From positions 324-64,323 of the forward strand of contig DISN01000005.1 of assembly GCA_002421965.1 (NCBI GenBank): 64,000 bases of DNA, read 5' to 3'. The stretch comes from Candidatus Saccharibacteria bacterium UBA6209. Its GTDB lineage: Bacteria; Patescibacteriota; Saccharimonadia; Saccharimonadales; Saccharimonadaceae. The notes beneath the pieces were generated by a model, which searched no databases, had not been told where the DNA came from, and worked only from the letters and a program-made list of their open reading frames with translations. This document shows positions 4,894 to 17,012 of this stretch, piece by piece. The position numbers and the translations under genes were made by a program. Numbering within the stretch: the first letter of the stretch is position 1; the number at the start of each line of letters is the position of its first letter.

Positions 4894-5928
4894 CTAATAG
4901 GTAACGAAATAATCAAATCCAAATGATGAATTTCCTGGTGCTGGCGCCGAAGTACAGATACTAAATCCTGCCTGGTCACGGTCAACGTAGTATTGGGTTC
5001 GACTAGCTGCGTTGCCGACCGGGCTGATGATTACGTAAGGCTGCTTGGTAAATGCCTGGGCAAAGTTGATCCTGATCATACAGCCAGACTGTGGTGAATT
5101 GCCGGTGCTGATATTTACTGTACCGGCAGTGTCCGAGCCGCTAACCGATGCTGTGCCGCCGCTACCAAGCGGACCACTATTAACCGTGCGGTTAGGCGAT
5201 GGTCCAGTAAAGCTGATGTGATTTGGGATCTCGAGTGAGGCGTTGCCACTTAGGATTAGTCGAGAGGTGGTTATTTGGGCGGCAGTCATTGGGCCGTTAA
5301 AGGTTGACGCCCCGGAGACGCTGAGCTCGCGCATAGTCGTGCCACCCTGGATGGCTAGGGTATTGGCGATTTGCAAGGTGTTGATCTGAGCTGTTCCTAG
5401 ATTTGATGTACCAGAAATGGTTAGACTCGGGCCTTGGATGCTACCGCCGGTTTGTAAATTGCCGGCGATATTTAGATTGCCTCTCATCAAGGTCTGCCCA
5501 TCGATTACGGCATTGCCCTGGATAGTTAGGGTTTGGGAAGCGCCGCCGACCGAAGTGTCTTTGCTGGCTAAATCCTGTAGAGCTTCTTGTGTTAGCTCTT
5601 GACCAGCAATTGTCGGCACTATCGCCGGTTTTTGGCTGTTTAGATAAAAAACCCAGGTAATGATAATCGACACAATAACAACTAAAATAAATAGCAGTAG
5701 GTAGACGTTGATTTTTTTAAACAGTCTACGAGCCTTAGAAATTTTCTTAGGTGCCTCTTCGGCGTTTGAGCTGTCGGACTGCTCGGTCTTCGTAGCCTCG
5801 CGCTCATCTGCAAGATCATCTGGCGTGCGACTTAGGGCGTCTGCCGGAGATTCTTGAACAACAGGCGTGTCATCAGTCGTATGATCAACAGGTTTATCAG
5901 TGCTAGTGTCTTTGTCTTCTGGATTCAT
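4894..5928 (-). CDS. Membrane-anchored fibre-like surface protein
   Basis: Acidic N-terminus, one TM segment (VYLLLFILVVIVSIIITWVFY), Gly/Thr/Ile/Leu beta-repeat stalk, compact C-terminal domain (INFAQAFTKQPYVIISP). Confidence 0.75.
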   Translation of the reverse strand: MNPEDKDTSTDKPVDHTTDDTPVVQESPADALSRTPDDLADEREATKTEQSDSSNAEEAPKKISKARRLFKKINVYLLLFILVVIVSIIITWVFYLNSQKPAIVPTIAGQELTQEALQDLASKDTSVGGASQTLTIQGNAVIDGQTLMRGNLNIAGNLQTGGSIQGPSLTISGTSNLGTAQINTLQIANTLAIQGGTTMRELSVSGASTFNGPMTAAQITTSRLILSGNASLEIPNHISFTGPSPNRTVNSGPLGSGGTASVSGSDTAGTVNISTGNSPQSGCMIRINFAQAFTKQPYVIISPVGNAASRTQYYVDRDQAGFSICTSAPAPGNSSFGFDYFVTY

Positions 5929-6027
5929 AATAATTCTTGTGCTTTATCTGTATCTAGCTTACTATAGTTTACGCTTTGGGGCTAGCTTGAGTTTTGTCGT
6001 AATTTCAAGGATAATAAACGTAAGCGT

Positions 6028-6768
6028 ATGAAAAAAGCGAGGTACGGGTTGTGTGTTTTGGTGACTTCGGGGTTAGCTTTAGGGGCCCTAGTTTCGGTGT
6101 CATATGCGCAGGAAGCTCCTACTTCTTCGTCAAACTTCCAGATAAGTGAGCCGCAATTCGGCGTTAATACCGAGAACGAGACCTGTTCTGGGGCCTATTG
6201 TGCCAGAGCGACAATTGGCAGTCTGGATGCTGGAGCGGACGAGCCGCAAAGAAGCACTGAGTTTAGTACTATCCCGCAAGACAGCGAGCCGCTCTTAGAG
6301 GTAATAGTCGATCCGGGCGAGTCTCATTTGGGTCTACTTAGCACCACTAAGTTATCTAGAAAGACTATGATCGTTAAAGTTAGAACCTATATGAGTGATG
6401 GCTATACGCTGCATATTTATGGCGAAGCCCCGAAGTATGGTGATCATTCACTGAACACTATGAATACTCCCGCCAGCTCATCTCCTGGCACCGAGCAGTT
6501 TGGTATAAACGTTATTCGCAACAACAGTCTTGGTTTTGGGGCCGACCCAGTGCAGGTGCCATCTGATCTTATGAGTTTTGGCGAAGTAGCGGCTGATTAT
6601 GGTGTGTCCGACGTGTTTAAGTATATTAATGGCGATGTCGTTGCCAGCAGTGTTGTCGAGACAGGACGAACAGATTACACCGTGTCAATGATTATTAATA
6701 TATCTAACGCCACTCCTGCGGGCCACTATAGTGGTGACTACTCGGCGGTTGTTGTTCCACGTTTCTAA
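6028..6768 (+). CDS. Secreted WxL-like/pilin-like protein A
   Basis: Signal peptide (VSYA), PGTEQFGIN motif, C-terminus TPAGHYSGDYSAVVVPRF. Confidence 0.75.
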   Translation: MKKARYGLCVLVTSGLALGALVSVSYAQEAPTSSSNFQISEPQFGVNTENETCSGAYCARATIGSLDAGADEPQRSTEFSTIPQDSEPLLEVIVDPGESHLGLLSTTKLSRKTMIVKVRTYMSDGYTLHIYGEAPKYGDHSLNTMNTPASSSPGTEQFGINVIRNNSLGFGADPVQVPSDLMSFGEVAADYGVSDVFKYINGDVVASSVVETGRTDYTVSMIINISNATPAGHYSGDYSAVVVPRF

Positions 6769-6898
6769 ATTAGCTACTTTAACATTCCTGTGGATAACTG
6801 GTTGCATACTGTATTTTGCTTGTGGTATTATGCCAGAGAACCCCTATGTTGAGGGAATATAAAATAAATACCAAATAAAACAAGGAGACATACGAAGT

Positions 6899-8572
6899 AT
6901 GCATACACTTAAGTCTATTGTTCAGCGAGGAACGCTGTTCGGGGCTTCAGCCGCACTGGTAGTCGCTGCTGTTGTGCCAGCAGTGTCAGTGTTCGCGGAT
7001 GCGCTAAACCCGCTAACCGAACGATCGCTGCTACTAACAAGTTCAGCACCTGGCTGGCAGGATACTGACGGTTCAGGAAACTCTGTCGCAGCACCAAACT
7101 CAGTTGGCGAAAACTATGCGCCAGCTGGATCAGGTCCAAACGGTAAAAAAGCCGGTCAAACATTTACTTTTAAAGTAAGTAGTACGGCAGAAGTTAAGGG
7201 TCTGTCACTTCAGTATTGTACTAGTGCGGCTGGCCTATGTCAGGCGCCGGGCAACAATAACGAAATGGTTCCAGGTTATACTGCGCCAGCCGTTAAGGAT
7301 GCAGCTGGTGACGCCCGAAACGGTGTATATGATGCAGGAACCAACACCACTGGTCGTCCCGCCAATGACGGGGCAGCTACAGTAGGTGGCCACGCTAATA
7401 AGAAGAGCGACCTCGACTTTGTTGGCGCATTTACCGAAGGTACTGGTGCTGGTCAGTATGAGGTAAAGGTTAACAACGTAACTTCAACTGGCTGGGTATT
7501 TACTGCTGCCAACCTTGAAAGTAGTGCACACACCGGCCAGCTGACCGGTAAGAAGAACTATGTCACTCTAGTTAATTCAGCTGGTGTAAATATAGCAAAT
7601 GGCCAAGAAGTACAGGTAATATTTCGTCCTTCAGAGTCGATCTATATCACCAACCCTGGATCAAAGGAGTTCTTCGTAAAGATTAATACCTATAATAGCG
7701 ATACGGTCCTTAAGGGTATTCATAACGAAGCCGATGAGGCACAGCACACCGTAATTGATGGTGGTGTAACAGTTGCTAACGTGATGACCGATTCGATCCA
7801 CATTACTACAAAGGTTCTGGAAACTATGGCCTTCTCAGTAGGCACAGAGAACCTAGATACCGCTACTGGTAAAAGCTACCATGGTAAGTGTGACCCAGTC
7901 AATCAGAAAGACAATAACCGCTTGCAGCTAGGTAACCCTGACGCTGAGTATTCACTAGAGACTGGTCGAGCATGGGATGTGTTCTCATACTGGCGACTAA
8001 GCTCTAACTCATCTGGTGGTGCAACAGTTTACTACTCAGGTGATACGCTTGCTAACACCGTTGGTGACAGCATTCAGGATATGCCAAACGAGGTAGTTAG
8101 TACTCCTGGTACAGAACAGTTCGGTCTTGGGTTTGTTGATGCAAACTTTGGCGTAGCAGCTAACCCAGATGACGCTGCACGAACAACTGATGTTAAGTCC
8201 CCTGACTCAAACTGGGATGCAAACTATCTACATCCAAGCAGTTATCCATTCCGAACCCTATCAGGCCAGGCCACAGTTGATCTTGGTGACGGGCGTGACT
8301 TTAACGGACTTAATACTCAGAATTCTAGCAATGACTACGATGAGGCAACTGGCACGATATTTGACAATAGCGGGTCAGCAGTTGCTCCAGGAACCGCAAA
8401 GTTCAAATTCCTTAAATCGAGCTTGACTGTTCCTGAGATGATTGCTCAGCAGAACGAAACAGTCATCAGCTGTGCGACAGCAAAAATGCGATACGTTGCA
8501 AACATCGGTGCAGACACCCCAGCTGGTGTATATACCACGAAGATTAACTACCTAGCTGCTCCTCAGTACTAG
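6899..8572 (+). CDS. Large secreted WxL-like/pilin-like protein B, candidate major subunit
   Basis: Signal peptide (SVFA), AAGGAG SD, own terminator, PGTEQFG motif, C-terminus TPAGVYTTKINYLAAPQY. Confidence 0.8.
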   Translation: MHTLKSIVQRGTLFGASAALVVAAVVPAVSVFADALNPLTERSLLLTSSAPGWQDTDGSGNSVAAPNSVGENYAPAGSGPNGKKAGQTFTFKVSSTAEVKGLSLQYCTSAAGLCQAPGNNNEMVPGYTAPAVKDAAGDARNGVYDAGTNTTGRPANDGAATVGGHANKKSDLDFVGAFTEGTGAGQYEVKVNNVTSTGWVFTAANLESSAHTGQLTGKKNYVTLVNSAGVNIANGQEVQVIFRPSESIYITNPGSKEFFVKINTYNSDTVLKGIHNEADEAQHTVIDGGVTVANVMTDSIHITTKVLETMAFSVGTENLDTATGKSYHGKCDPVNQKDNNRLQLGNPDAEYSLETGRAWDVFSYWRLSSNSSGGATVYYSGDTLANTVGDSIQDMPNEVVSTPGTEQFGLGFVDANFGVAANPDDAARTTDVKSPDSNWDANYLHPSSYPFRTLSGQATVDLGDGRDFNGLNTQNSSNDYDEATGTIFDNSGSAVAPGTAKFKFLKSSLTVPEMIAQQNETVISCATAKMRYVANIGADTPAGVYTTKINYLAAPQY

Positions 8573-8586
8573 AATAGTTATCAATC

Positions 8587-8618
8587 AAAAAGCTGACTCA
8601 TCACGAGTCAGCTTTTTT
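8587..8618 (+). terminator. Intrinsic terminator
   Basis: AAAAAGCTGACTC-ATCAC-GAGTCAGCTTTTTT. Confidence 0.9.
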
Positions 8619-8663
8619 GATTTAGCATAAGCTAAAAACAGAGGTTTGTAGTATAATTCGAGT

Positions 8664-9737
8664 ATGCGGACTCACATCAATCAATGGCTAATACATCTAA
8701 TGCGTTGGTCTCATTTAGCATTGGAGCTACTATTGATCGGTATACTGATAGCGCTATTTATTGCGCCGTCCGCTGGCGCTGCCATGAGGCTGCGTGAGAG
8801 AAGTCTGTATATGACTAATGATGAAGCAGGGGAGCGATCGTCGTATGTCTTGGGATTTCGATATATGAGTCCGGTGCCGATTGGCTCTTTTGAGTTACTG
8901 TTTTGTAATGATCCAATTCCATACAATCCTTGTGAGGTTCCGCTTGGTTTGGACGTGTCGGATGTGTCGTTGACTAACCAGACTGGCGAAACTGGCTTTG
9001 TTATTTCACAAAAAAGCACAAATCGCCTATTGTTTACGCGCACGTCTAGTCTACCGGGTCCAGATCGATCGACCTATACTTTTGATAATGTTCTTAACCC
9101 GTTAGATATCGAGGCTGCTTTTGCGGTGCGCATAAAGACCTTCGAGTCTAATAATGGAACTGGCCCACAGGTGGACTTTGGTTCGGTTCGTGGTCAGGTG
9201 ATTAAGGGTATTCAAATCGAAACTCAGGTGCCGCCAATGTTAATATTTTGTCTAGCAGAGCAGGTTGAATATAACTGTACGGGTACAAATGACATTTATC
9301 ATTCGGATATGGGTAAGCTTAGTCCAAATGAAACTTTGACTGCGCAGTCTCAGATGGCTGTCGGTACCAACGCAACTGCTGGATTTGTGATTTCTGTCGT
9401 AGGTAGTCCGCTGAGCGCCGGCATGGAGGTTATAAAATCGCTCGATACTCCTTCTCCCAGTAAGCTAGGTAAGAACCAGTTTGGTATTAATCTTGTGGCA
9501 AATAACTCTCCGGGAATTGGCCTTGACCCAGAGGGTGACTGGGCTAACGCCACCGCTGCGCCTAATTACGGCCAGTCAAATATGTACATGTTCAAGGACG
9601 GGGATATCGTCGCTTCGTCACCGAACGTTAGTCTAATGAAAAAGTTCACCGTGAGCTATATAGTTAACGTTAGTCCTGCGCTTAGAGCTGGCGTTTACAC
9701 AACTACCATAAACTTTATAGCCAGTGGCAGGTTTTAG
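8664..9737 (+). CDS. Secreted WxL-like/pilin-like protein C
   Basis: Signal peptide (SAGA), NQFGINL motif, C-terminus LRAGVYTTTINFIASGRF. Confidence 0.78.
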   Translation: MRTHINQWLIHLMRWSHLALELLLIGILIALFIAPSAGAAMRLRERSLYMTNDEAGERSSYVLGFRYMSPVPIGSFELLFCNDPIPYNPCEVPLGLDVSDVSLTNQTGETGFVISQKSTNRLLFTRTSSLPGPDRSTYTFDNVLNPLDIEAAFAVRIKTFESNNGTGPQVDFGSVRGQVIKGIQIETQVPPMLIFCLAEQVEYNCTGTNDIYHSDMGKLSPNETLTAQSQMAVGTNATAGFVISVVGSPLSAGMEVIKSLDTPSPSKLGKNQFGINLVANNSPGIGLDPEGDWANATAAPNYGQSNMYMFKDGDIVASSPNVSLMKKFTVSYIVNVSPALRAGVYTTTINFIASGRF

Positions 9738-9766
9738 TGTATAATGTGTATTGTACTTAAGGTAAA

Positions 9767-10837
9767 ATGGAGGGTCTACCAATAATGAATCACTTAAAGA
9801 GTGCAGCTCTGATCATGTGTGCAGTGGTTTTTGCAGCATCGTTGTTATTTATTCCGCAGCAAAATGCATATGCTCAGGGTTCAGCGGCACTTAGTATTGT
9901 TCCTAAAAAGACATACACGATTGAGGCCGGTAAGACCGTTAATGACACACTGTTGATTCGCAACCAAGACAAAGAGCGAACGCTTAACTTGTCCCTCAGG
10001 GTTATAGATTTTAGCTACACCGACGATAGTGGAGCCCCGAAGCTTATGCTCGACGAGGGTGCCCCAAAGACATCCTGGTCGCTAAGAGATAATATTGATA
10101 TTCCAGAGACCGTATCGATTGAGCCGGGATCAAGCGAGTCAATTGGTATGAGTGTAACAATTCCCGAGAACCAAGGTGGCTGTAGCCTTTATAGTGCAAT
10201 TGTCTACTCCTCGACTAGCTCTGAGGGTGGTAATGTCGGCCTTAGCGCTTCAGGAGTGACGTTGGTATTCGCTAACATACCTGGTGTCTGTAAAGAAGAT
10301 TTGGTATTAAAAAGAGTTGGAGCACTTAATGATTCAAAAAATATCGACAACGGCGAGTATGCCTATTTCCACCTAGATCAGCCCAAGCGGATAGCCTACA
10401 CATTACAGAATAACGGTAACGTTGCCGCTAGTCCTGTCGGTAGCATTACCCTAAGGCCATGGTTTGGTAAGGAAATCGTAATAAACAACATTAACCCTAA
10501 CGGCTCGCTTGCTCTAATTGGCCAGGAGAGAACATTCGTATCCTGCGTCAAACTAAAGGGCGAAACGGTTGGATTTAACGGTACACGCGCTGAATCCACC
10601 ACCTGCGATACTTCTGGTCTGTGGCCTGGTTTTTATAGCGTCGAGCTGGCTGGCTACTATGGGCAAAATGGCAATAACACCAAGGATCTAGTTGGCTCAA
10701 GCTGGTTTATTTATATGCCATGGTGGGCAATAGCCATCCTTGTTGCCGCTCTAGCATTTATCACTTACTATGTACGAAAAATTGTCCTACACATCCGCTC
10801 AAATAGCAGCAAAGCTAAGCTTAAGAAAAGAAAATAA
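9767..10837 (+). CDS. DUF916/WxLIP-like secreted Ig-fold protein with C-terminal membrane anchor (protein D)
   Basis: Signal peptide; LSIVPKKTYTIEAGKTV, LQNNGNV and WPGFYSV motifs; C-terminal TM followed by a basic tail. Confidence 0.7.
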   Translation: MEGLPIMNHLKSAALIMCAVVFAASLLFIPQQNAYAQGSAALSIVPKKTYTIEAGKTVNDTLLIRNQDKERTLNLSLRVIDFSYTDDSGAPKLMLDEGAPKTSWSLRDNIDIPETVSIEPGSSESIGMSVTIPENQGGCSLYSAIVYSSTSSEGGNVGLSASGVTLVFANIPGVCKEDLVLKRVGALNDSKNIDNGEYAYFHLDQPKRIAYTLQNNGNVAASPVGSITLRPWFGKEIVINNINPNGSLALIGQERTFVSCVKLKGETVGFNGTRAESTTCDTSGLWPGFYSVELAGYYGQNGNNTKDLVGSSWFIYMPWWAIAILVAALAFITYYVRKIVLHIRSNSSKAKLKKRK

Positions 10838-10869
10838 CTAAAAAATAAAGCGCAGGGGGTGTTCGGCTG

Positions 10870-11784
10870 GTGAAGAGGTTAATTTCCAACTACCTGACTG
10901 GTTTCATAGTAGCCTTTATGGCTGCTGTGGTGCTGGGGCAGGGCGTCGGGGCAATTAACCCTTTGCCAACACCAGACCCTAAGCCGGGTGGTTTCGGACT
11001 AGAAGCCGTTAAAGAGCAGGCTCCGCCAAATATGGGTGCGACAATCACCACGCCATCAAACGGTGCATCATTTTCATCGTCACCGATAACTGTTAATGGA
11101 CTATGCCCGCAAGGTCTACTGGTTCAGCTATACAATAACAACGTCATGGTTGGTTCGGTGATGTGTGACAATGGCAGCTTTAGTATTGAGGTTAGTTTGT
11201 TTGCTGGGACTAACGAGTTAAAGGCTATTGTCTATGATGAACTAGATCAGGCTGGCCCTGAGTCAAACATCGTCTCGGTCAACTATACTGATACTAGTTT
11301 TACTAGATTTGGTGAGCTTATAACACTAACCAGCAATTACGGTCGACGCTCCGCAGCAAACAATACTCAGCTAGTCTGGCCGCTTCAGCTATCTGGCGGA
11401 ACTGGCCCATATGCCTTTAGTATTGACTGGGGTGACGGTTCGCAGCTCCAACTTCTAAGTCAGTCATTGGCTGGGCTAATAAATATCGATCATATTTATA
11501 AAAAAGCTGGTATCTATCAAGTGAACGTTCGGGTGACTGACTCAAATGGTGTCAGCGCCTTTCTGCAAGTTATTGCTGTTTCTAGTGGCCAGGCAGACAT
11601 AGGTGCGGCCCCCGTCACCGATGGCGGCAGCAAGGCTCAGGGCAAGCCAGTTGTTTTGTGGCTACCAACGGTCATTCTACTACTATTACTTTTGCCAACT
11701 TATTGGCTTGGACGTCGCTCACAGCTAGTGACGATCAGGAACAAGATGATCAAGGAGAGGGACAGGTACCAAGACAAAAAATAA
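10870..11784 (+). CDS. Secreted Ig-like plus PKD-domain protein with C-terminal anchor (protein E)
   Basis: Signal peptide; SIDWGDGS and HIYKKAGIYQVNVRVTD PKD motifs; C-terminal TM. Confidence 0.75.
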   Translation: MKRLISNYLTGFIVAFMAAVVLGQGVGAINPLPTPDPKPGGFGLEAVKEQAPPNMGATITTPSNGASFSSSPITVNGLCPQGLLVQLYNNNVMVGSVMCDNGSFSIEVSLFAGTNELKAIVYDELDQAGPESNIVSVNYTDTSFTRFGELITLTSNYGRRSAANNTQLVWPLQLSGGTGPYAFSIDWGDGSQLQLLSQSLAGLINIDHIYKKAGIYQVNVRVTDSNGVSAFLQVIAVSSGQADIGAAPVTDGGSKAQGKPVVLWLPTVILLLLLLPTYWLGRRSQLVTIRNKMIKERDRYQDKK

Positions 11785-11858
11785 CTGTATTGAAAGCATG
11801 AAAGTTATCATGATACACTGTGGGTGTACGTGTGAGTATTAAATAAGGGAGGAATCAA

Positions 11859-13031
11859 GTGAAACAGACAAAATTTTCTGGTAGGCATTTAGGCTTTCTG
11901 GTAACGGCCTTTGCGGTAGTTGGCCTACTAGCAGTGCCACTTACAACGGCTTTTGCCGCAACAGCAACCAATCGCTCAGTCGAGCTATCAAGCTCTTCAT
12001 TGGGTGCGACCAATGTCCGATACAAGTTATCATTTACAACCGGTACTGCGGCCGCGGGTGCAGCTGTGATCTATTTCTGTAACAATAGCCCGCTCAAGGG
12101 TGCTGCTTGTACTGCTCCAACTGGCTTTACTGCCGCCAATGCTACGGTATCGACTCCATTCAGTAAGGTTGGATCAACTGCTAACCGCATTGAAGTAAGC
12201 GGTACTTTTGGAGCAAGTGAAGATATCGAACTTGAGCTAGCGGGTATCACTAACCCAACAGTCGCCTCGGTAACTGAACCACTATATGTTCGTGTAGTAA
12301 CCTATGCTTCTCCTGGCGATGCTACAGGCACTACTGCCACTGCGCTAGGCACAAATCAAGTTGATGATGGCAGTATGGCAATTGCTATCACTCCAACCAT
12401 CGGTGTATCTGGAGATGTTTTAGAGACATTGACATTCTGTGTATCTGGTGGGACTGCAGCCGACAAGGAAGTTAGTCCTATCGGAGACGGCTGTACTGGT
12501 ACATTGACCGCTCCAACCCTAAAGCTTGGTACTGATGCTGGCGGTATTGTCAGTCTTCAGCCGGGAGTGGTTAGTGAAGGCAAGATCTTTACACAGATTT
12601 CTACTAACGCTGCCAAAGGTGCAATTGTTAGGCTAAAGAGTAGCGCTGTTGGCTGTGGTGGATTGTTGCGAGCCGGTGCTGCATCTGCTTGCGATATCGC
12701 ACCTGCTCAGCAGACGGGTATTGTAGCTGGTGATGCAAAGTTTGGCGTCAAGACAGCAGCTTCAACTGACGGCGCCGGAGCACTTGGTCTATATCAGCCA
12801 TACGGTACTCTCGCAGCTAATGCTTACTACAGCAATGATACATTCTCGATGCGTTATGTTGATGCTAACGATGGCGTAACTAGTCCTTTCGGAGATCGAT
12901 TCCTAGAGACAGCCGAAGCACCAGCAAACAACAAGAACATGGCGCTAACATTTGGTGTAGCTGCTTCTAACAACACACCAGCTGGTAATTACTCGGCAGA
13001 TCTTAGTCTGATTGCCGTAGGTACATTTTAA
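11859..13031 (+). CDS. Secreted WxL-like/pilin-like protein F
   Basis: GTG start with GGGAGG SD, signal peptide (TAFA), C-terminus TPAGNYSADLSLIAVGTF. Confidence 0.8.
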   Translation: MKQTKFSGRHLGFLVTAFAVVGLLAVPLTTAFAATATNRSVELSSSSLGATNVRYKLSFTTGTAAAGAAVIYFCNNSPLKGAACTAPTGFTAANATVSTPFSKVGSTANRIEVSGTFGASEDIELELAGITNPTVASVTEPLYVRVVTYASPGDATGTTATALGTNQVDDGSMAIAITPTIGVSGDVLETLTFCVSGGTAADKEVSPIGDGCTGTLTAPTLKLGTDAGGIVSLQPGVVSEGKIFTQISTNAAKGAIVRLKSSAVGCGGLLRAGAASACDIAPAQQTGIVAGDAKFGVKTAASTDGAGALGLYQPYGTLAANAYYSNDTFSMRYVDANDGVTSPFGDRFLETAEAPANNKNMALTFGVAASNNTPAGNYSADLSLIAVGTF

Positions 13032-13060
13032 GCTTCTGAATAACCCAAGGAGACAGATTT

Positions 13061-14053
13061 ATGCGGACTAGACAGAGTATTAAGAACATAGCGGCTGCAT
13101 CACTAGTAGCTGTTGTTGGGCTTTCTGTGGCATTTGTAGGCCAAAGCTATGCTCAGCAGGCAGCAACGTCAAGCACAGCGAATACCCTAAAGGTTTCGCC
13201 ACTGCGAACCGATGTGACTGCCGACCCAGGTGAGACAAAAACTGTAAAAATAATTGTAACCAATCCCTCTAACGCAGAGGTTTCGGTAAAGCCAATACAG
13301 AACGACTTTGTTGCTGATGACAAAGAGGATGGTAGCCCGGCAATCATTTTGGATGAAAATGAGTATTCTAAGTCAAATAGTCTGAAGCGTTTCTTAGTGC
13401 CGCTAGAGAGCTTTAATCTCGCCAGTGGTGAGACGAAAGTTGTCGAAGCGACAATCAACGTTCCTAGCAACGCTGAAGCCGGTGGCTACTTTGGCGCAAT
13501 TCGATTCGCACCAACTGCACCCGACGCTGGTGGTCAGGTTAACATGAGCCCTAGCGTTGCCTCGATTATTCTCCTTAGGGTGAACGGTCAGGTTTCAGAA
13601 AAGCTCGAGCTGACTGATTTCCAGGTACTACAAGACAGCAAAGCGACTAACTATTTGCTGAGTGATCAGAGCGTGTCAATGCTGGTGCGCTTTAAAAATA
13701 ACAGCAAGGTCCAACTAGCGCCATTTGGATCAATATCTGTTCAAAAGGGCGATAAGGTTGTCTACAATGCTAACTTTAACAACTCTGAGCAAAAAGATAT
13801 GGTCCTGCCGGCCAGTGCTAGGCGCTGGGAAGTTCCACTTAAGGACATCGATGGCTTTGGCAAGTACACGGTCAGTGCAACCTTTACTTACGGCTCGGCC
13901 AACCAGACACTAGAAGCAACTCAGGTCTTCTGGGTAATTCCTCTTCCGATAATCATCGGGTCGTTGATTGGCTTGGCGGTAGTTATTGGGTTGATTGTTC
14001 TGCTGATAGTCAGGAGCAAGCGACAAAAGGGTAGTATCAAGCTAGGTAAATAA
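13061..14053 (+). CDS. Second DUF916/WxLIP-like membrane-anchored protein (protein G)
   Basis: LKVSPLRTDVTADPGETKTV, AGGYFGAIRF, FGKYTVSA motifs; C-terminal TM and basic tail; paralogous to 9767-10837. Confidence 0.75.
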   Translation: MRTRQSIKNIAAASLVAVVGLSVAFVGQSYAQQAATSSTANTLKVSPLRTDVTADPGETKTVKIIVTNPSNAEVSVKPIQNDFVADDKEDGSPAIILDENEYSKSNSLKRFLVPLESFNLASGETKVVEATINVPSNAEAGGYFGAIRFAPTAPDAGGQVNMSPSVASIILLRVNGQVSEKLELTDFQVLQDSKATNYLLSDQSVSMLVRFKNNSKVQLAPFGSISVQKGDKVVYNANFNNSEQKDMVLPASARRWEVPLKDIDGFGKYTVSATFTYGSANQTLEATQVFWVIPLPIIIGSLIGLAVVIGLIVLLIVRSKRQKGSIKLGK

Positions 14054-14071: not shown

Positions 14072-14104
14072 AAAGTAACCTCCGCTTAGAGCGGAGGTTA
14101 CTTT
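14072..14104. terminator. Bidirectional intrinsic terminator
   Basis: AAAGTAACCTCCGC-TTAGA-GCGGAGGTTACTTT between convergent genes. Confidence 0.88.
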
Positions 14105-14165: not shown

Positions 14166-15731
14166 CTAGGGTTGTTGCTTAGATAGGAATATCTGCTTTT
14201 CGTAAAAGCTAGATCGCTTAGCTAGCTCGCTATTTAGCGCCTCAATAGTGCCGTATTTCTCAACTAGGGTTTCGCTATCTGAGAATAAGTTGGTGCCGAG
14301 CGCCAGTTTGTCGCCATCGATCTTGACACCCATGGCGGCCAGAGTAGTGGGGTACATGTCGAATGATGAGAATAATCTTCCAGTTGAGGTTACAGGCTTA
14401 ACTGCTGAATTTATAAATACATTATATACAGTTCGCTGATAATCTGGTTGAGTAATGATATTGTCGTAGTATGAGGTCTGCATACCCAAGTGGTCGCCAG
14501 TCAGGACGATGGTCGTGTTATCGGCAAATGGCTGCTCTTGTAGCCAGCCTACAAACTCAGCGACCATGCTTGATGAGCAGGCGTGAACATTGCTGTATTT
14601 TTCCTGGTAGTTTGTCTGGCAGCTAGGATCAAGCCAGCCATCAGTGAAGTGTGTATCGACAGTCAGTAGCGACAGGTTAAATGGCTTATCTTCGGATGAC
14701 AACCGCTCTGCTTCGGTCTTGGCGAACTCAAGCAGCTTCTTGTCTTCATAGCCCCACCAGACACCATAGTCAGGTGATATTTGTCCAGACTTCTTGGCAT
14801 AATTATAGTCCTGGATAGATGTATTGCCGTGTTGAGTTAGCATTTTATCTCGTCCGCCGAACGAGGCTTCTGATCCCATAATAAATGTCTGATTGTAGCC
14901 GTTGGCCTCAAGCACATCACCAATCGTGTAGGCACCAGGTAGGAATTCCTTGTACATGCCCATTGAGTTGTGGTCTTTGCCGAGCACGCTTGATTTTAGT
15001 GGTACGCCACCGCTCTGAGCCATCATAGCACCGACGGTCCAAGTTGTGCCGTAGGCTGGCAGTGAACCGCCCAGGCCAGACTGTAGGTTCGAGAACGATA
15101 CATTGTCGTTATTTGTCGCCAATTTTTCTAGCTCGGGCATTATCGTCTGATCCATCTGACCGCCGTTTTCCTTAGAAAACAGAGTATTCTCCATTGATTC
15201 TAGGTAGATATAGACTAGGTTGCGCTTTTTTTCTGGGAAGGTTAACTTTGCGGTGCTTGGCTCAACGTAGTGGTCTTCATAAAGATTACTGGTTTGAGTC
15301 AGCGACCAGACATAGTCAAATACGCCAAAACTACTAAGCAGTAGCCAGGCTGACAATAGAAACATCGTCAGTGAGTAGATAAATTTATATTTGAGACGGA
15401 TTTTTGATGGGTTAAAGGTAATCTTTTTTGCTCGACCCAGAAATGACAGATCAAAGTTTATAGTAATTTTGTTGCGATAAAAATCAATAACTGGCAGTAG
15501 CAGCAGAAAGAAAAGTATGCCGCAAAATAATAAATTATCTTGGACAGCGCTTATCAGGCTGGACAGCTGTCCGTCACCCGCACCGTTAATAAAGTAAAAG
15601 ATTATCTCATCTATTTGAGCATCGCCAAAATTGACACGTTTATATCGGTTGGCAACATAAAATACCGCCGCTAGTAGCAACATGACCAGGATGCTTATTT
15701 TGGCGAGTAATCTTCGTTTACTTTTTATCAT
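14166..15731 (-). CDS. LTA synthase/phosphoglycerol transferase (MdoB/LtaS, sulfatase superfamily)
   Basis: N-terminal TM segments, YLESMEN, TTWT (catalytic Thr), DTHF and GDH motifs; start set at ATG 15731 rather than the ORF-track 15764. Confidence 0.85.
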   Translation of the reverse strand: MIKSKRRLLAKISILVMLLLAAVFYVANRYKRVNFGDAQIDEIIFYFINGAGDGQLSSLISAVQDNLLFCGILFFLLLLPVIDFYRNKITINFDLSFLGRAKKITFNPSKIRLKYKFIYSLTMFLLSAWLLLSSFGVFDYVWSLTQTSNLYEDHYVEPSTAKLTFPEKKRNLVYIYLESMENTLFSKENGGQMDQTIMPELEKLATNNDNVSFSNLQSGLGGSLPAYGTTWTVGAMMAQSGGVPLKSSVLGKDHNSMGMYKEFLPGAYTIGDVLEANGYNQTFIMGSEASFGGRDKMLTQHGNTSIQDYNYAKKSGQISPDYGVWWGYEDKKLLEFAKTEAERLSSEDKPFNLSLLTVDTHFTDGWLDPSCQTNYQEKYSNVHACSSSMVAEFVGWLQEQPFADNTTIVLTGDHLGMQTSYYDNIITQPDYQRTVYNVFINSAVKPVTSTGRLFSSFDMYPTTLAAMGVKIDGDKLALGTNLFSDSETLVEKYGTIEALNSELAKRSSFYEKQIFLSKQQP

Positions 15732-16023
15732 TTTTCTTGACTTCAATGGCGACCATGCCCTCAATTAGATTGACGACAAAGGGCAGTACGAATGCAAATA
15801 CTGATGCGCCGATTAAGTAATTTATGAATGACTTATCGCTAAAGATGACGTTCTCATGGTTGAATATATAGATAATAACCAGGTACATGCACAGGTTGAC
15901 TAGTACTAGAAATAGTCCAAAAGAGGTAAATAATTTGCGTGTTGGTAGCTTGTCTCGCTTTAAGTGATTGTAAAAACCGAGCGCCACCATGGCAGGGGCA
16001 ATAAGTGCGATAATTTCATGCAT
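15718..16023 (-). CDS. Small membrane protein coupled to the LTA synthase gene
   Basis: Three hydrophobic segments; TAAAAT 6 nt before ATG; overlaps the next gene. Confidence 0.75.
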   Translation of the reverse strand: MHEIIALIAPAMVALGFYNHLKRDKLPTRKLFTSFGLFLVLVNLCMYLVIIYIFNHENVIFSDKSFINYLIGASVFAFVLPFVVNLIEGMVAIEVKKNDKK

Positions 16024-16094
16024 ATATCTATTTTACCACGAATAAATAAACTATCTGGCGTAGGAGGCAACGACAGTATATAATAAGCATAACC

Positions 16095-17012
16095 ATGGTG
16101 GAGTATTACCTAAAGAGATCAATGTCAGACACGCTGAGTCGGGTAGATAAGCCGCTGAGTGGAAATGGTCTGTGGGTTCACTCTACCGATCGTCGGACCG
16201 AAGTCTCGTCAATAATCGAGCACTACGGGCTAGATAGAAATACTGTCCAGGATGTCTACGACCGACACGAGCTGCCACGACAGGAGTCCAAGGATGGTGT
16301 TTCATATAGTTTTCTGAGGGTGCCGAATGCAGCTGGCGACACTGTGCCGATGCTAGCGATAGTGACTAGGCATAATTTCATTACTATTTCTCCACATATG
16401 GTGTTTTCTCCGGCAGAGACCGATGTATATTTAACAACACCAACCAGCAATCCTGCTGCCTCGCTGGTAGCCTTGCACGCCAGGATTGTTACCGAATACG
16501 AAAAACATATCTCCAGACTGAGTGAAATGATTGCCAAATCTCGTAAGCATCTCAAGAAGCATGATGTTTCAAATAAGGATTTTATTGAATTTGTTGATAT
16601 TGAGGATCAGCTAAATGACTATCACACCAGCCTAAGCGGCATAAATGATGTGATTGGTCGCTTGGCCGAAAACCGCTTAGGTCTGTTTAAACACTACGAC
16701 CTAGAATCGATAGAGGACTTATCTCTTCATGTTTCGCAGTTAATAGTATCGATCGACTCAAATATTCAGTCAGTTCGAAGTATTCAGAGTGCTTATTCGA
16801 CAATTGCCAACAATACAATGAACCAGCGAATGAAGGCCTTAACCGTAGTGACGATACTCTTGGCCATACCGAACGTTTTTTATGGTATGTACGGCATGAA
16901 TATTGCGCTGCCTATGCAGCATGAGTCCTGGGCTTATCCGGCGATCATCGGATTTACGGCGTTGTTAATTTTACTCGTGTTTATCCTTGCAAGGCGCTTC
17001 AGGTTATTCTAG
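16095..17012 (+). CDS. corA: CorA-family Mg2+ transporter
   Basis: YGMN motif between two C-terminal TM helices. Confidence 0.92.
   Translation: MVEYYLKRSMSDTLSRVDKPLSGNGLWVHSTDRRTEVSSIIEHYGLDRNTVQDVYDRHELPRQESKDGVSYSFLRVPNAAGDTVPMLAIVTRHNFITISPHMVFSPAETDVYLTTPTSNPAASLVALHARIVTEYEKHISRLSEMIAKSRKHLKKHDVSNKDFIEFVDIEDQLNDYHTSLSGINDVIGRLAENRLGLFKHYDLESIEDLSLHVSQLIVSIDSNIQSVRSIQSAYSTIANNTMNQRMKALTVVTILLAIPNVFYGMYGMNIALPMQHESWAYPAIIGFTALLILLVFILARRFRLF

Follow-up and report, generated by a model that had tools for sequence, protein, structure and literature searches.

A probable complete pam pilus operon in a Saccharimonadia genome and the DUF916 kinship of its membrane-anchored chaperones

The Pam pilus was first described by Troman et al. 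(2026, bioRxiv 10.64898/2026.03.03.709456; PMC13278184), who examined filaments shed by Candidatus Mycosynbacter amalyticus by single-particle cryo-electron microscopy (cryo-EM) and found two pilins, PamA (55.3 kDa, two cysteine pairs) and PamB (38.7 kDa, three cysteine pairs). The pilins are joined linearly into an extended fibre, in which the linker strand between the N- and C-terminal domains, the most conserved region of the pilins, is donated into the open immunoglobulin (Ig)-like C-terminal domain of the neighbouring subunit; stretches of PamA switch to stretches of PamB within single filaments, and one ordered pilus was modelled. The other operon products are PamE, the single-domain PamT, the RbmA-like PamR, which is anchored by a transmembrane (TM) helix and was proposed as the membrane anchor, and the TM-anchored PamC and PamD, which were proposed as PapD/FimC-like chaperones, PamD having an extra beta-hairpin (PMC13278184). 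Pam was called 'exclusive to CPR' (the Candidate Phyla Radiation), with chaperones related only to PapD/FimC (bioRxiv 10.64898/2026.03.03.709456). The elr operon of Enterococcus was in turn reported to encode a donor-strand-exchange (DSE) pilus of WxL pilins with ElrE as its membrane-anchored DUF916/DUF3324 chaperone, and this WxL chaperone-pilin system was called 'confined to the Bacillota' (Sleutel et al. 2026, bioRxiv 10.64898/2026.10.17.759780). Neither preprint refers to the system of the other, and our literature search found no paper joining DUF916 or WxLIP with CPR. In this report, we analyse a window of 64,000 nucleotides (nt) from Candidatus Saccharibacteria bacterium UBA6209 (contig DISN01000005.1, positions 324 to 64,323), a metagenome-assembled genome (MAG) of 704,560 bp in 26 contigs, and we conclude that positions 6028-14053 of this window are very probably a complete pam operon of the Saccharimonadia, pamT-pamA-pamE-pamD-pamR-pamB-pamC, with the proposed DSE mechanism of pilus assembly. 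The pilus system is already published with curated models, and the window adds one more orthologous operon; the DUF916 kinship of the Pam chaperones goes beyond both 2026 preprints and is the sole new point.

Positions 6028-14053 are occupied by seven intact open reading frames (ORFs), all on the plus strand and separated by gaps of 29-130 nt, and they encode four secreted paralogous pilins, two anchored paralogous two-domain proteins and one anchored PKD/FnIII protein. We assigned these products with the NCBIfam models NF058579 (CPR_pilus_PamT, cut-off 240 bits), NF058578 (CPR_pilus_PamR, 300 bits) and NF058581 (Pam pilin C domain, 55 bits). The protein of 246 aa at 6028-6768 is PamT, the single-domain tip pilin (NF058579, 262.7 bits), and the protein of 304 aa at 10870-11784 is PamR, the RbmA-like terminator and proposed membrane anchor, with PKD matches and a TM helix at residues 257-281 (NF058578, 376.7 bits); both scores lie above the equivalog cut-offs. 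The Pam pilin C domain was matched above its cut-off in three of the pilins, namely PamT (152.9 bits), the PamE-type pilin of 357 aa at 8664-9737, which is encoded between PamA and PamD and is proposed as the base pilin (149.8 bits), and the PamA-type major pilin of 557 aa at 6899-8572, whose operon position is conserved (61.3 bits). The fourth, the PamB-type major pilin of 390 aa at 11859-13031, was placed by its C-terminal domain, which hhalign relates to those of the other three pilin groups with probabilities of 94.5-98.3% and thus marks as a paralogue. Across all four groups the C-terminal domains are mutually homologous (94.5-99.9%), the NF058581 matches of all four pilins reach the last model position (148/148) at the protein C-terminus, and the Pam pilin domains of pamT, pamA, pamE and pamB are the sole ones in the genome. 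The remaining genes encode the two chaperones, PamD (356 aa, TM helix 313-341, 9767-10837), recognized as a PamC paralogue and by an ElrE-family match, and PamC (330 aa, TM helix 287-321, 13061-14053), a DUF916-type chaperone recognized by its AlphaFold2 (AF2) model, Foldseek, PF06030 and hhalign; the two align over their families at 99.9% (E = 3.6e-36). PamT, PamA, PamE and PamB have an N-terminal hydrophobic signal only, and PamD, PamR and PamC have a signal and a C-terminal TM helix. A sequence-only reading of this DNA, made earlier by a model, had already given the seven ORFs with these start positions, the Sec signals and C-terminal anchors, the paralogy of the proteins at 9767 and 13061 and the anchored Ig/PKD character of the protein at 10870, and on all of these our analysis agrees with it.

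Comparison with the operon of M. amalyticus extends this identification. The seven components stand in the same order there, as judged by the order of RefSeq accessions, and the two loci share the two-domain architecture of the pilins, the TM anchors on the chaperones and PamR, and neighbouring ATP synthase and 'tail fibre-like' genes. Mature PamA of the window has about the published mass (55.0 against 55.3 kDa) and four cysteines, equal to two pairs; the PamB precursor (38.9 against 38.7 kDa) has six, equal to three pairs; and PamD carries an insert of ~30 aa relative to PamC, matching the published extra hairpin. The loci differ in that the window organism is another species, strain JR1 being rejected on genome size, contig count and residue 356 of PamA, and in that LtaS-like and CorA genes lie downstream in the window, as against CorB/MFS/MazE in close relatives of JR1; a CorB-like gene near the operon was also reported in relatives of M. 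amalyticus (PMC13278184). No match was found when the PamA- and PamB-type proteins were searched by sequence against PDB chains. The present analysis itself shows what the parts are, how they are related, their topology, fold class and synteny, their sequence constraints and the DUF916/WxLIP lineage of the chaperones; filament formation and DSE would carry over, by orthology, from the cryo-EM of M. amalyticus. The earlier proposal of membrane-tethered chaperones building a non-type-IV fibre largely coincides with the published Pam model, whose operon the window matches by NCBIfam and synteny; its alternative of a surface layer falls away, the orthologues forming filaments. The class III signal peptide and N-terminal hydrophobic alpha-helix of type IV pilins are absent, the pilin signals being of Sec type with A-x-A-like sites and the mature pilins beta-rich.

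The C-terminal ends of the four pilins, NATPAGHYSGDYSAVVVPRF, ADTPAGVYTTKINYLAAPQY, PALRAGVYTTTINFIASGRF and NNTPAGNYSADLSLIAVGTF, hold a common register: all four have Gly at position -15 and Tyr at -13, and all four close with Phe or Tyr. The register had been written earlier as AG-x-Y-x12-[F/Y]; the Gly at -15 and the aromatic end stand in all four pilins, but the spacing from Tyr to the end is x11, not x12. In the orthologous pilins of 80 Saccharibacteria species loci, 264/264 have the Gly at -15, 264/264 have Tyr or Phe at -13, and 263/264 close with an aromatic residue; among distant pilins from 20 Patescibacteria families the corresponding counts were 25/27, 26/27 (aromatic at -13) and 26/27, the clearest exception having an intact motif shifted by one extra residue. 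As read from these alignments, the register lies far beyond chance, because the C-terminal domains are mutually homologous and the register is near-invariant in orthologues. The (Q/K)FG motif that had been noted as common to the four pilins was located at residues 157 of PamT, 407 of PamA, 272 of PamE and 294 of PamB, with an additional QFG at residue 43 of PamT. In PamA, residues 286-314 (7754-7840, plus strand), which comprise the linker and the first strand of the C-terminal domain, are near-invariant in 59 orthologues and represent the putative donated strand.

The AF2 model of PamT is confident for residues 70-246 and disordered for residues 1-68, and its best Foldseek matches are Csu (7zl4), the pilin domain of PapG (2wmp) and PapE (1n12), with FimA also found; the probabilities of these matches to chaperone-usher pilins are 0.9-1.0, with modest E-values of 4e-3 to 1e-2 for a monomer model. 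Residues 30-68 of PamT (6115-6231) are strongly conserved, with invariant C53, Y57, C58 and G64 and the second QFG at 43, and are modelled as disordered (pLDDT <50) despite this conservation. This N-terminal segment may serve in binding specific to the tip, or it may provide a strand that takes on order only once the pilus is assembled.

A synteny survey of 80 species-level Saccharibacteria loci revealed the order Tf<-T-A-E-D-R-B-C, Tf being the divergent 'tail fibre-like' gene, in every contig of sufficient length, and ~55 complete loci all keep the seven genes in this order; atpD-atpC lies upstream in about half of the surveyed loci. Among the named relatives found, an uncultured Saccharibacteria MAG came nearest (PamC identity 72%). 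In an even sampling of 401 Patescibacteria genomes, the Pam pilin C domain was present in 98/401 and a PamC-like chaperone in 160/401; in the 14 control genomes the Pam pilin C domain was not matched. A chaperone gene stands immediately 3' of a pilin gene, on the same strand, in 20/20 distant loci examined, and therefore the pilin-then-chaperone pair is the conserved core of the system; the synteny survey that had been suggested for the Patescibacteria thus returned the pair in the distant loci and the full order in the Saccharibacteria. One of the surveyed loci, L018 (JARKOR010000008.1, a Candidatus Nanosynbacter sp. MAG), contains the complete operon Tf-T-A-E-D-R-B-C, and some oral Saccharibacteria of the genus Nanosynbacter are in culture and genetically tractable. 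Outside this class of the Patescibacteria, the Pam pilin C domain also ends giant ORFs of 6452, 5528 and 3748 aa, among others (G020:C9:273709-274149, G175:C1:60162-60548, G139:C38:86236-86664), an arrangement resembling WxL tip adhesins, in which a C-terminal attachment module bears a variable payload. One genome of 0.8 Mb (G197) has nine paralogues on several contigs, most of them ~880 aa and each ending in the Pam pilin C domain, and a single PamC-like chaperone match.

The same pair, as the minimal unit conserved across the phylum, raises the question of whether the locus holds two independent systems, a T-A-E-D-R fibre with chaperone D and a B-C fibre with chaperone C, much as the sequence-only reading had divided it into two modules. 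The E-D and B-C gaps are each 29 nt, and pamB is preceded by a promoter-like site (TTGAAA-18-TACACT with TG, 11790-11819, plus strand), found by a consensus scan only and weak as evidence. Two separate fibres are nonetheless very unlikely in our view: the seven genes keep their order in the complete loci, a single strong terminator-like hairpin with a 15-bp stem closes the operon 3' of pamC (14072-14104, plus strand), the B-C module would have neither a tip nor an anchor protein of its own, and the preprint saw PamA switching to PamB within single filaments and models one pilus. What endures of the two modules is the phylum-wide pairing of pilin and chaperone, and their separation into distinct fibres does not agree with PamA and PamB stretches in single filaments.

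We then turn to the chaperones, for which our data depart from the published account. PamC was modelled by AF2 (pLDDT, 84.9) as a pair of beta-sandwich domains followed by a C-terminal helix. In Foldseek this model came closest to Enterococcus faecium WxLIP in complex with a WxL protein (9i25_C, E = 1.4e-12), next to free WxLIP (9i1y) and then to CfaA, FimC, DraB, CsuC and Caf1M, in that order. PamC of the window scored 25.0-27.6 bits against PF06030 (DUF916; cut-off 27.3), and this family was matched at E<=0.01 by 44/44 PamC and 41/46 PamD orthologues, whereas PapD_N and PapD_C (PF00345/PF02753) and DUF3324 (PF11797) matched 0/90 PamC/PamD orthologues. Profile-profile comparison of the PamC family with 35 Bacillota ElrE-like chaperones gave an hhalign probability of 97.6% (E = 2.7e-12) over 218 columns and both domains, and that of the PamD family with the same alignment gave 96.5% (E = 1e-9); ten PapD-family chaperones of Escherichia coli K-12 reached only 21% with PamC and 26% with PamD (20.8-25.9%), and reversed-alignment controls 0.2-13%. 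In addition, the PamC beta-hairpin at residues 141-174 (GGYFGAIRFAP ... GGQVN ... ASIILL; 13481-13582, plus strand) is the most conserved part of the protein, carries the invariant residues of the family and aligns with the ElrE hairpin that holds the published chaperone donor strand, and it may therefore be regarded as a putative donor strand region of PamC. From the Pfam, hhalign, reversed-control and hairpin-alignment results together, it is well supported that PamC and PamD belong to the WxLIP/DUF916 lineage and not to the PapD lineage. The link to WxLIP emerged only with Pfam, Foldseek and profile-profile comparison; an hmmsearch of PDB sequences with the PamC profile missed WxLIP at E<=10. 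Separately, PamC and PamD resemble the N-terminal domain of the PapD family at 21-26% (E ~1e-3), which is non-significant, and the ElrE family resembles it at 1.2%; we rejected this weak PapD-family similarity as evidence, and mention only that the Pam chaperones might form a bridge between the PapD and DUF916 chaperone families.

This kinship makes the Elr/WxL pilus of Enterococcus faecalis the natural comparison. The two systems share a homologous chaperone composed of signal, DUF916, a second beta-sandwich and a C-terminal TM helix, a chaperone gene directly 3' of a pilin gene (ElrD-ElrE), a C-terminal acceptor domain whose conserved last strand is needed (in Pam, probably) for chaperone binding, and a division into tip, fibre and terminator subunits that dispenses with an usher. 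They differ in several respects: the Pam pilins have no match to the WxL domain; the Elr donor is an N-terminal extension, whereas the Pam donor lies internally, in a linker that follows an additional N-terminal beta-sandwich; the Elr terminator is an LPxTG protein attached through sortase, whereas that of Pam is TM-anchored (PamR); the aromatic C-terminus of Pam stands strictly at the end of the protein, and WxL tails are of variable length; and Pfam detects no DUF3324 in the Pam chaperones, although hhalign with ElrE does reach the second domain. On the pilin side, no window pilin matched Pfam WxL (PF13731) at E<=1, and a phmmer search with ElrD, translated from the sequence in the preprint, found no matches among 261 Pam pilins. 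When a WxL alignment of 11-12 sequences, ElrD plus homologues, was compared by hhalign with each Pam C-terminal domain group, the combined set and the 27 distant pilins, the best E-value was 0.083 (probability <1%), only marginally better than the reversed controls (0.37-0.69), and homology of the Pam pilins to WxL was not accepted on this ground. The landmarks of the two domains do occur in the same order, namely an FG strand, GW-x-L versus GY-x-V, and Y-x-TT-I-T-W-T-L versus Y-S-TT-L-T-Y-V-A, which we treat as a lead only.

An assignment to the Bacillota-type WxL/Csc complexes or to a true Elr/WxL pilus, in which wall-held WxL proteins work with DUF916/DUF3324 partners, has a slim chance at best. 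The DUF916 homology of PamC and PamD, the solved structure nearest to PamC, the pilin-then-chaperone gene order and the similar C-terminal strand motifs (Y-x-TT-[IL]-T-[YW]) with their landmarks in order would all fit such an assignment; against it, the pilins show no WxL match in Pfam and hhalign E-values of at least 0.08, near those of the reversed controls, the chaperones show no DUF3324 match, no LPxTG terminator is present, the donor is an internal linker and not an N-terminal extension, and the curated Pam models fit instead. The analogy with WxL and DUF916 clusters drawn in the sequence-only reading was accordingly right for the chaperones, which are DUF916 homologues, and lacks statistical support where it called the pilins 'WxL-like'; likewise, of the profile searches that it proposed, DUF916 was matched in PamC near the cut-off, and more weakly in PamD, and WxL, DUF3324, PapD_N and SCPU gave no match in the window proteins (Pfam, NCBIfam). 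Beyond the pam operon itself, we see about an even chance that the Pam and WxL/Elr pili are two branches of an ancient usher-less DSE superfamily of bacteria without an outer membrane, with an anchored DUF916 chaperone. As a further step, the like order of motifs suggests, though without statistical support, that the Pam C-terminal domain may be a WxL domain with two Trp residues replaced by Tyr/Phe (GW-x-L to GY-x-L/V, and Y-x-TT-I-T-W-T-L to Y-x-TT-L-T-Y-V-A). One superfamily, if true, would contradict the phylum restrictions of both 2026 preprints.

The classical chaperone-usher pili (Pap, Fim, Csu, CFA/I and Caf1) share with Pam donor-strand complementation and exchange, a two-domain chaperone, a C-terminal strand that conserves Gly and aromatic residues and probably an incomplete-Ig pilin fold, and PapD recognizes its subunits through the pilin C-terminal strand. 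In contrast to them, Pam has neither an usher nor an outer membrane, its chaperones are membrane-anchored and by sequence not PapD-like, and its fibre is an extended linear polymer and not a coiled rod. A chaperone-usher or sortase-dependent pilus diverged beyond recognition is hardly credible, since, for all the nearness of the PamT fold to chaperone-usher pilins and the significant matches of PamC to CfaA, FimC, CsuC and Caf1M, the whole genome has no match to the outer-membrane usher PF00577, PapD_N and PapD_C are missing throughout the orthologues, the K-12 chaperones score low, the seven operon proteins contain no LPx[TSA]G motif, and the two sortase matches above cut-off in the genome both lie off the operon contig; the absence of LPxTG motif, sortase and usher had been stated for the window beforehand and is borne out.

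Several observations weigh against a complete pam operon with a DSE mechanism. PamB scored 35.8 bits with NF058581, under the cut-off of 55, and PamD of the window scored 14.8-16.8 bits with Pfam DUF916, also under the cut-off. Residue 356 of the window PamA is Gly, and the modified Ser356 of M. amalyticus is not kept at that number. Filaments have been seen for the M. amalyticus orthologues only, and beyond the PamA/PamB filaments the published model, itself a preprint, consists of AlphaFold complexes (PMC13278184). Moreover, Pam pilin domains and PamC-like chaperones are absent from near-complete genomes of close relatives, one in the same genus (G263) and others in the same family (G010, G291, G357 and G396); the operon is therefore patchy and dispensable in some relatives.

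Our data together with the published structure suggest a model for assembly. All seven products would be exported by Sec. The C-terminal domain of each pilin would be incomplete and Ig-like, its last strand, in the register AG-x-Y-x11-aromatic-COOH, lining an open groove, and the membrane-seated PamD and PamC would cap this groove in newly exported pilins with the strand of their domain-1 hairpin. The terminal aromatic tail would pair with the inserted strand, and the chaperone probably recognizes this tail, much as PapD and ElrE do in their systems. An incoming pilin (PamA, PamB or PamE) would then displace the chaperone strand with the linker strand that precedes its own C-terminal domain, which constitutes DSE; PamT, lacking a donor strand, would sit at the tip, and PamR would supply the terminal strand and a TM helix and so tether the finished fibre to the cytoplasmic membrane, with neither usher nor sortase taking part. 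The fibre would probably make the first contact with a host bacterium. For the window proteins, we infer the donor strands, the chaperone-pilin pairing and the role in host attachment.

The surroundings of the operon were also inspected. A promoter-like site 5' of pamT (TTGAGT-17-GATAAT, 5987-6015, plus strand) was found by the same kind of scan as the internal one and is equally weak evidence. Further upstream, a divergent gene at 4894-5928 (minus strand), which adjoins pamT in 56 loci, encodes the conserved membrane protein termed 'tail fibre-like' in the Pam preprint; its 344 aa include an acidic N-terminal part, a single TM helix (68-99) and beta-helix repeats like those of bactofilins, with a weak match to Pfam Bactofilin (E = 5e-4). 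The region 3' of the operon (14166-17012) encodes an LtaS/sulfatase-like membrane protein (14166-15764, minus strand) and a CorA-type Mg transporter (16095-17012), and a CorA homologue lies 3' of the operon in ~15 surveyed loci.

Pam represents a recently recognised third route to DSE fibres, one without usher or sortase whose chaperones are tethered to the membrane, and it is found in a superphylum in which the means of attachment to hosts are little understood. The shared DUF916 lineage connects two pili that were described independently in 2026, each as confined to a different phylum, and it offers Pam a tractable reference in the ElrE/ElrD reconstitution and the WxLIP-WxL crystal structures. 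The terminal AG-x-Y-x11-aromatic tail provides a testable rule across the phylum, and with the operon present in the Nanosynbacter MAG, knockouts should be feasible.

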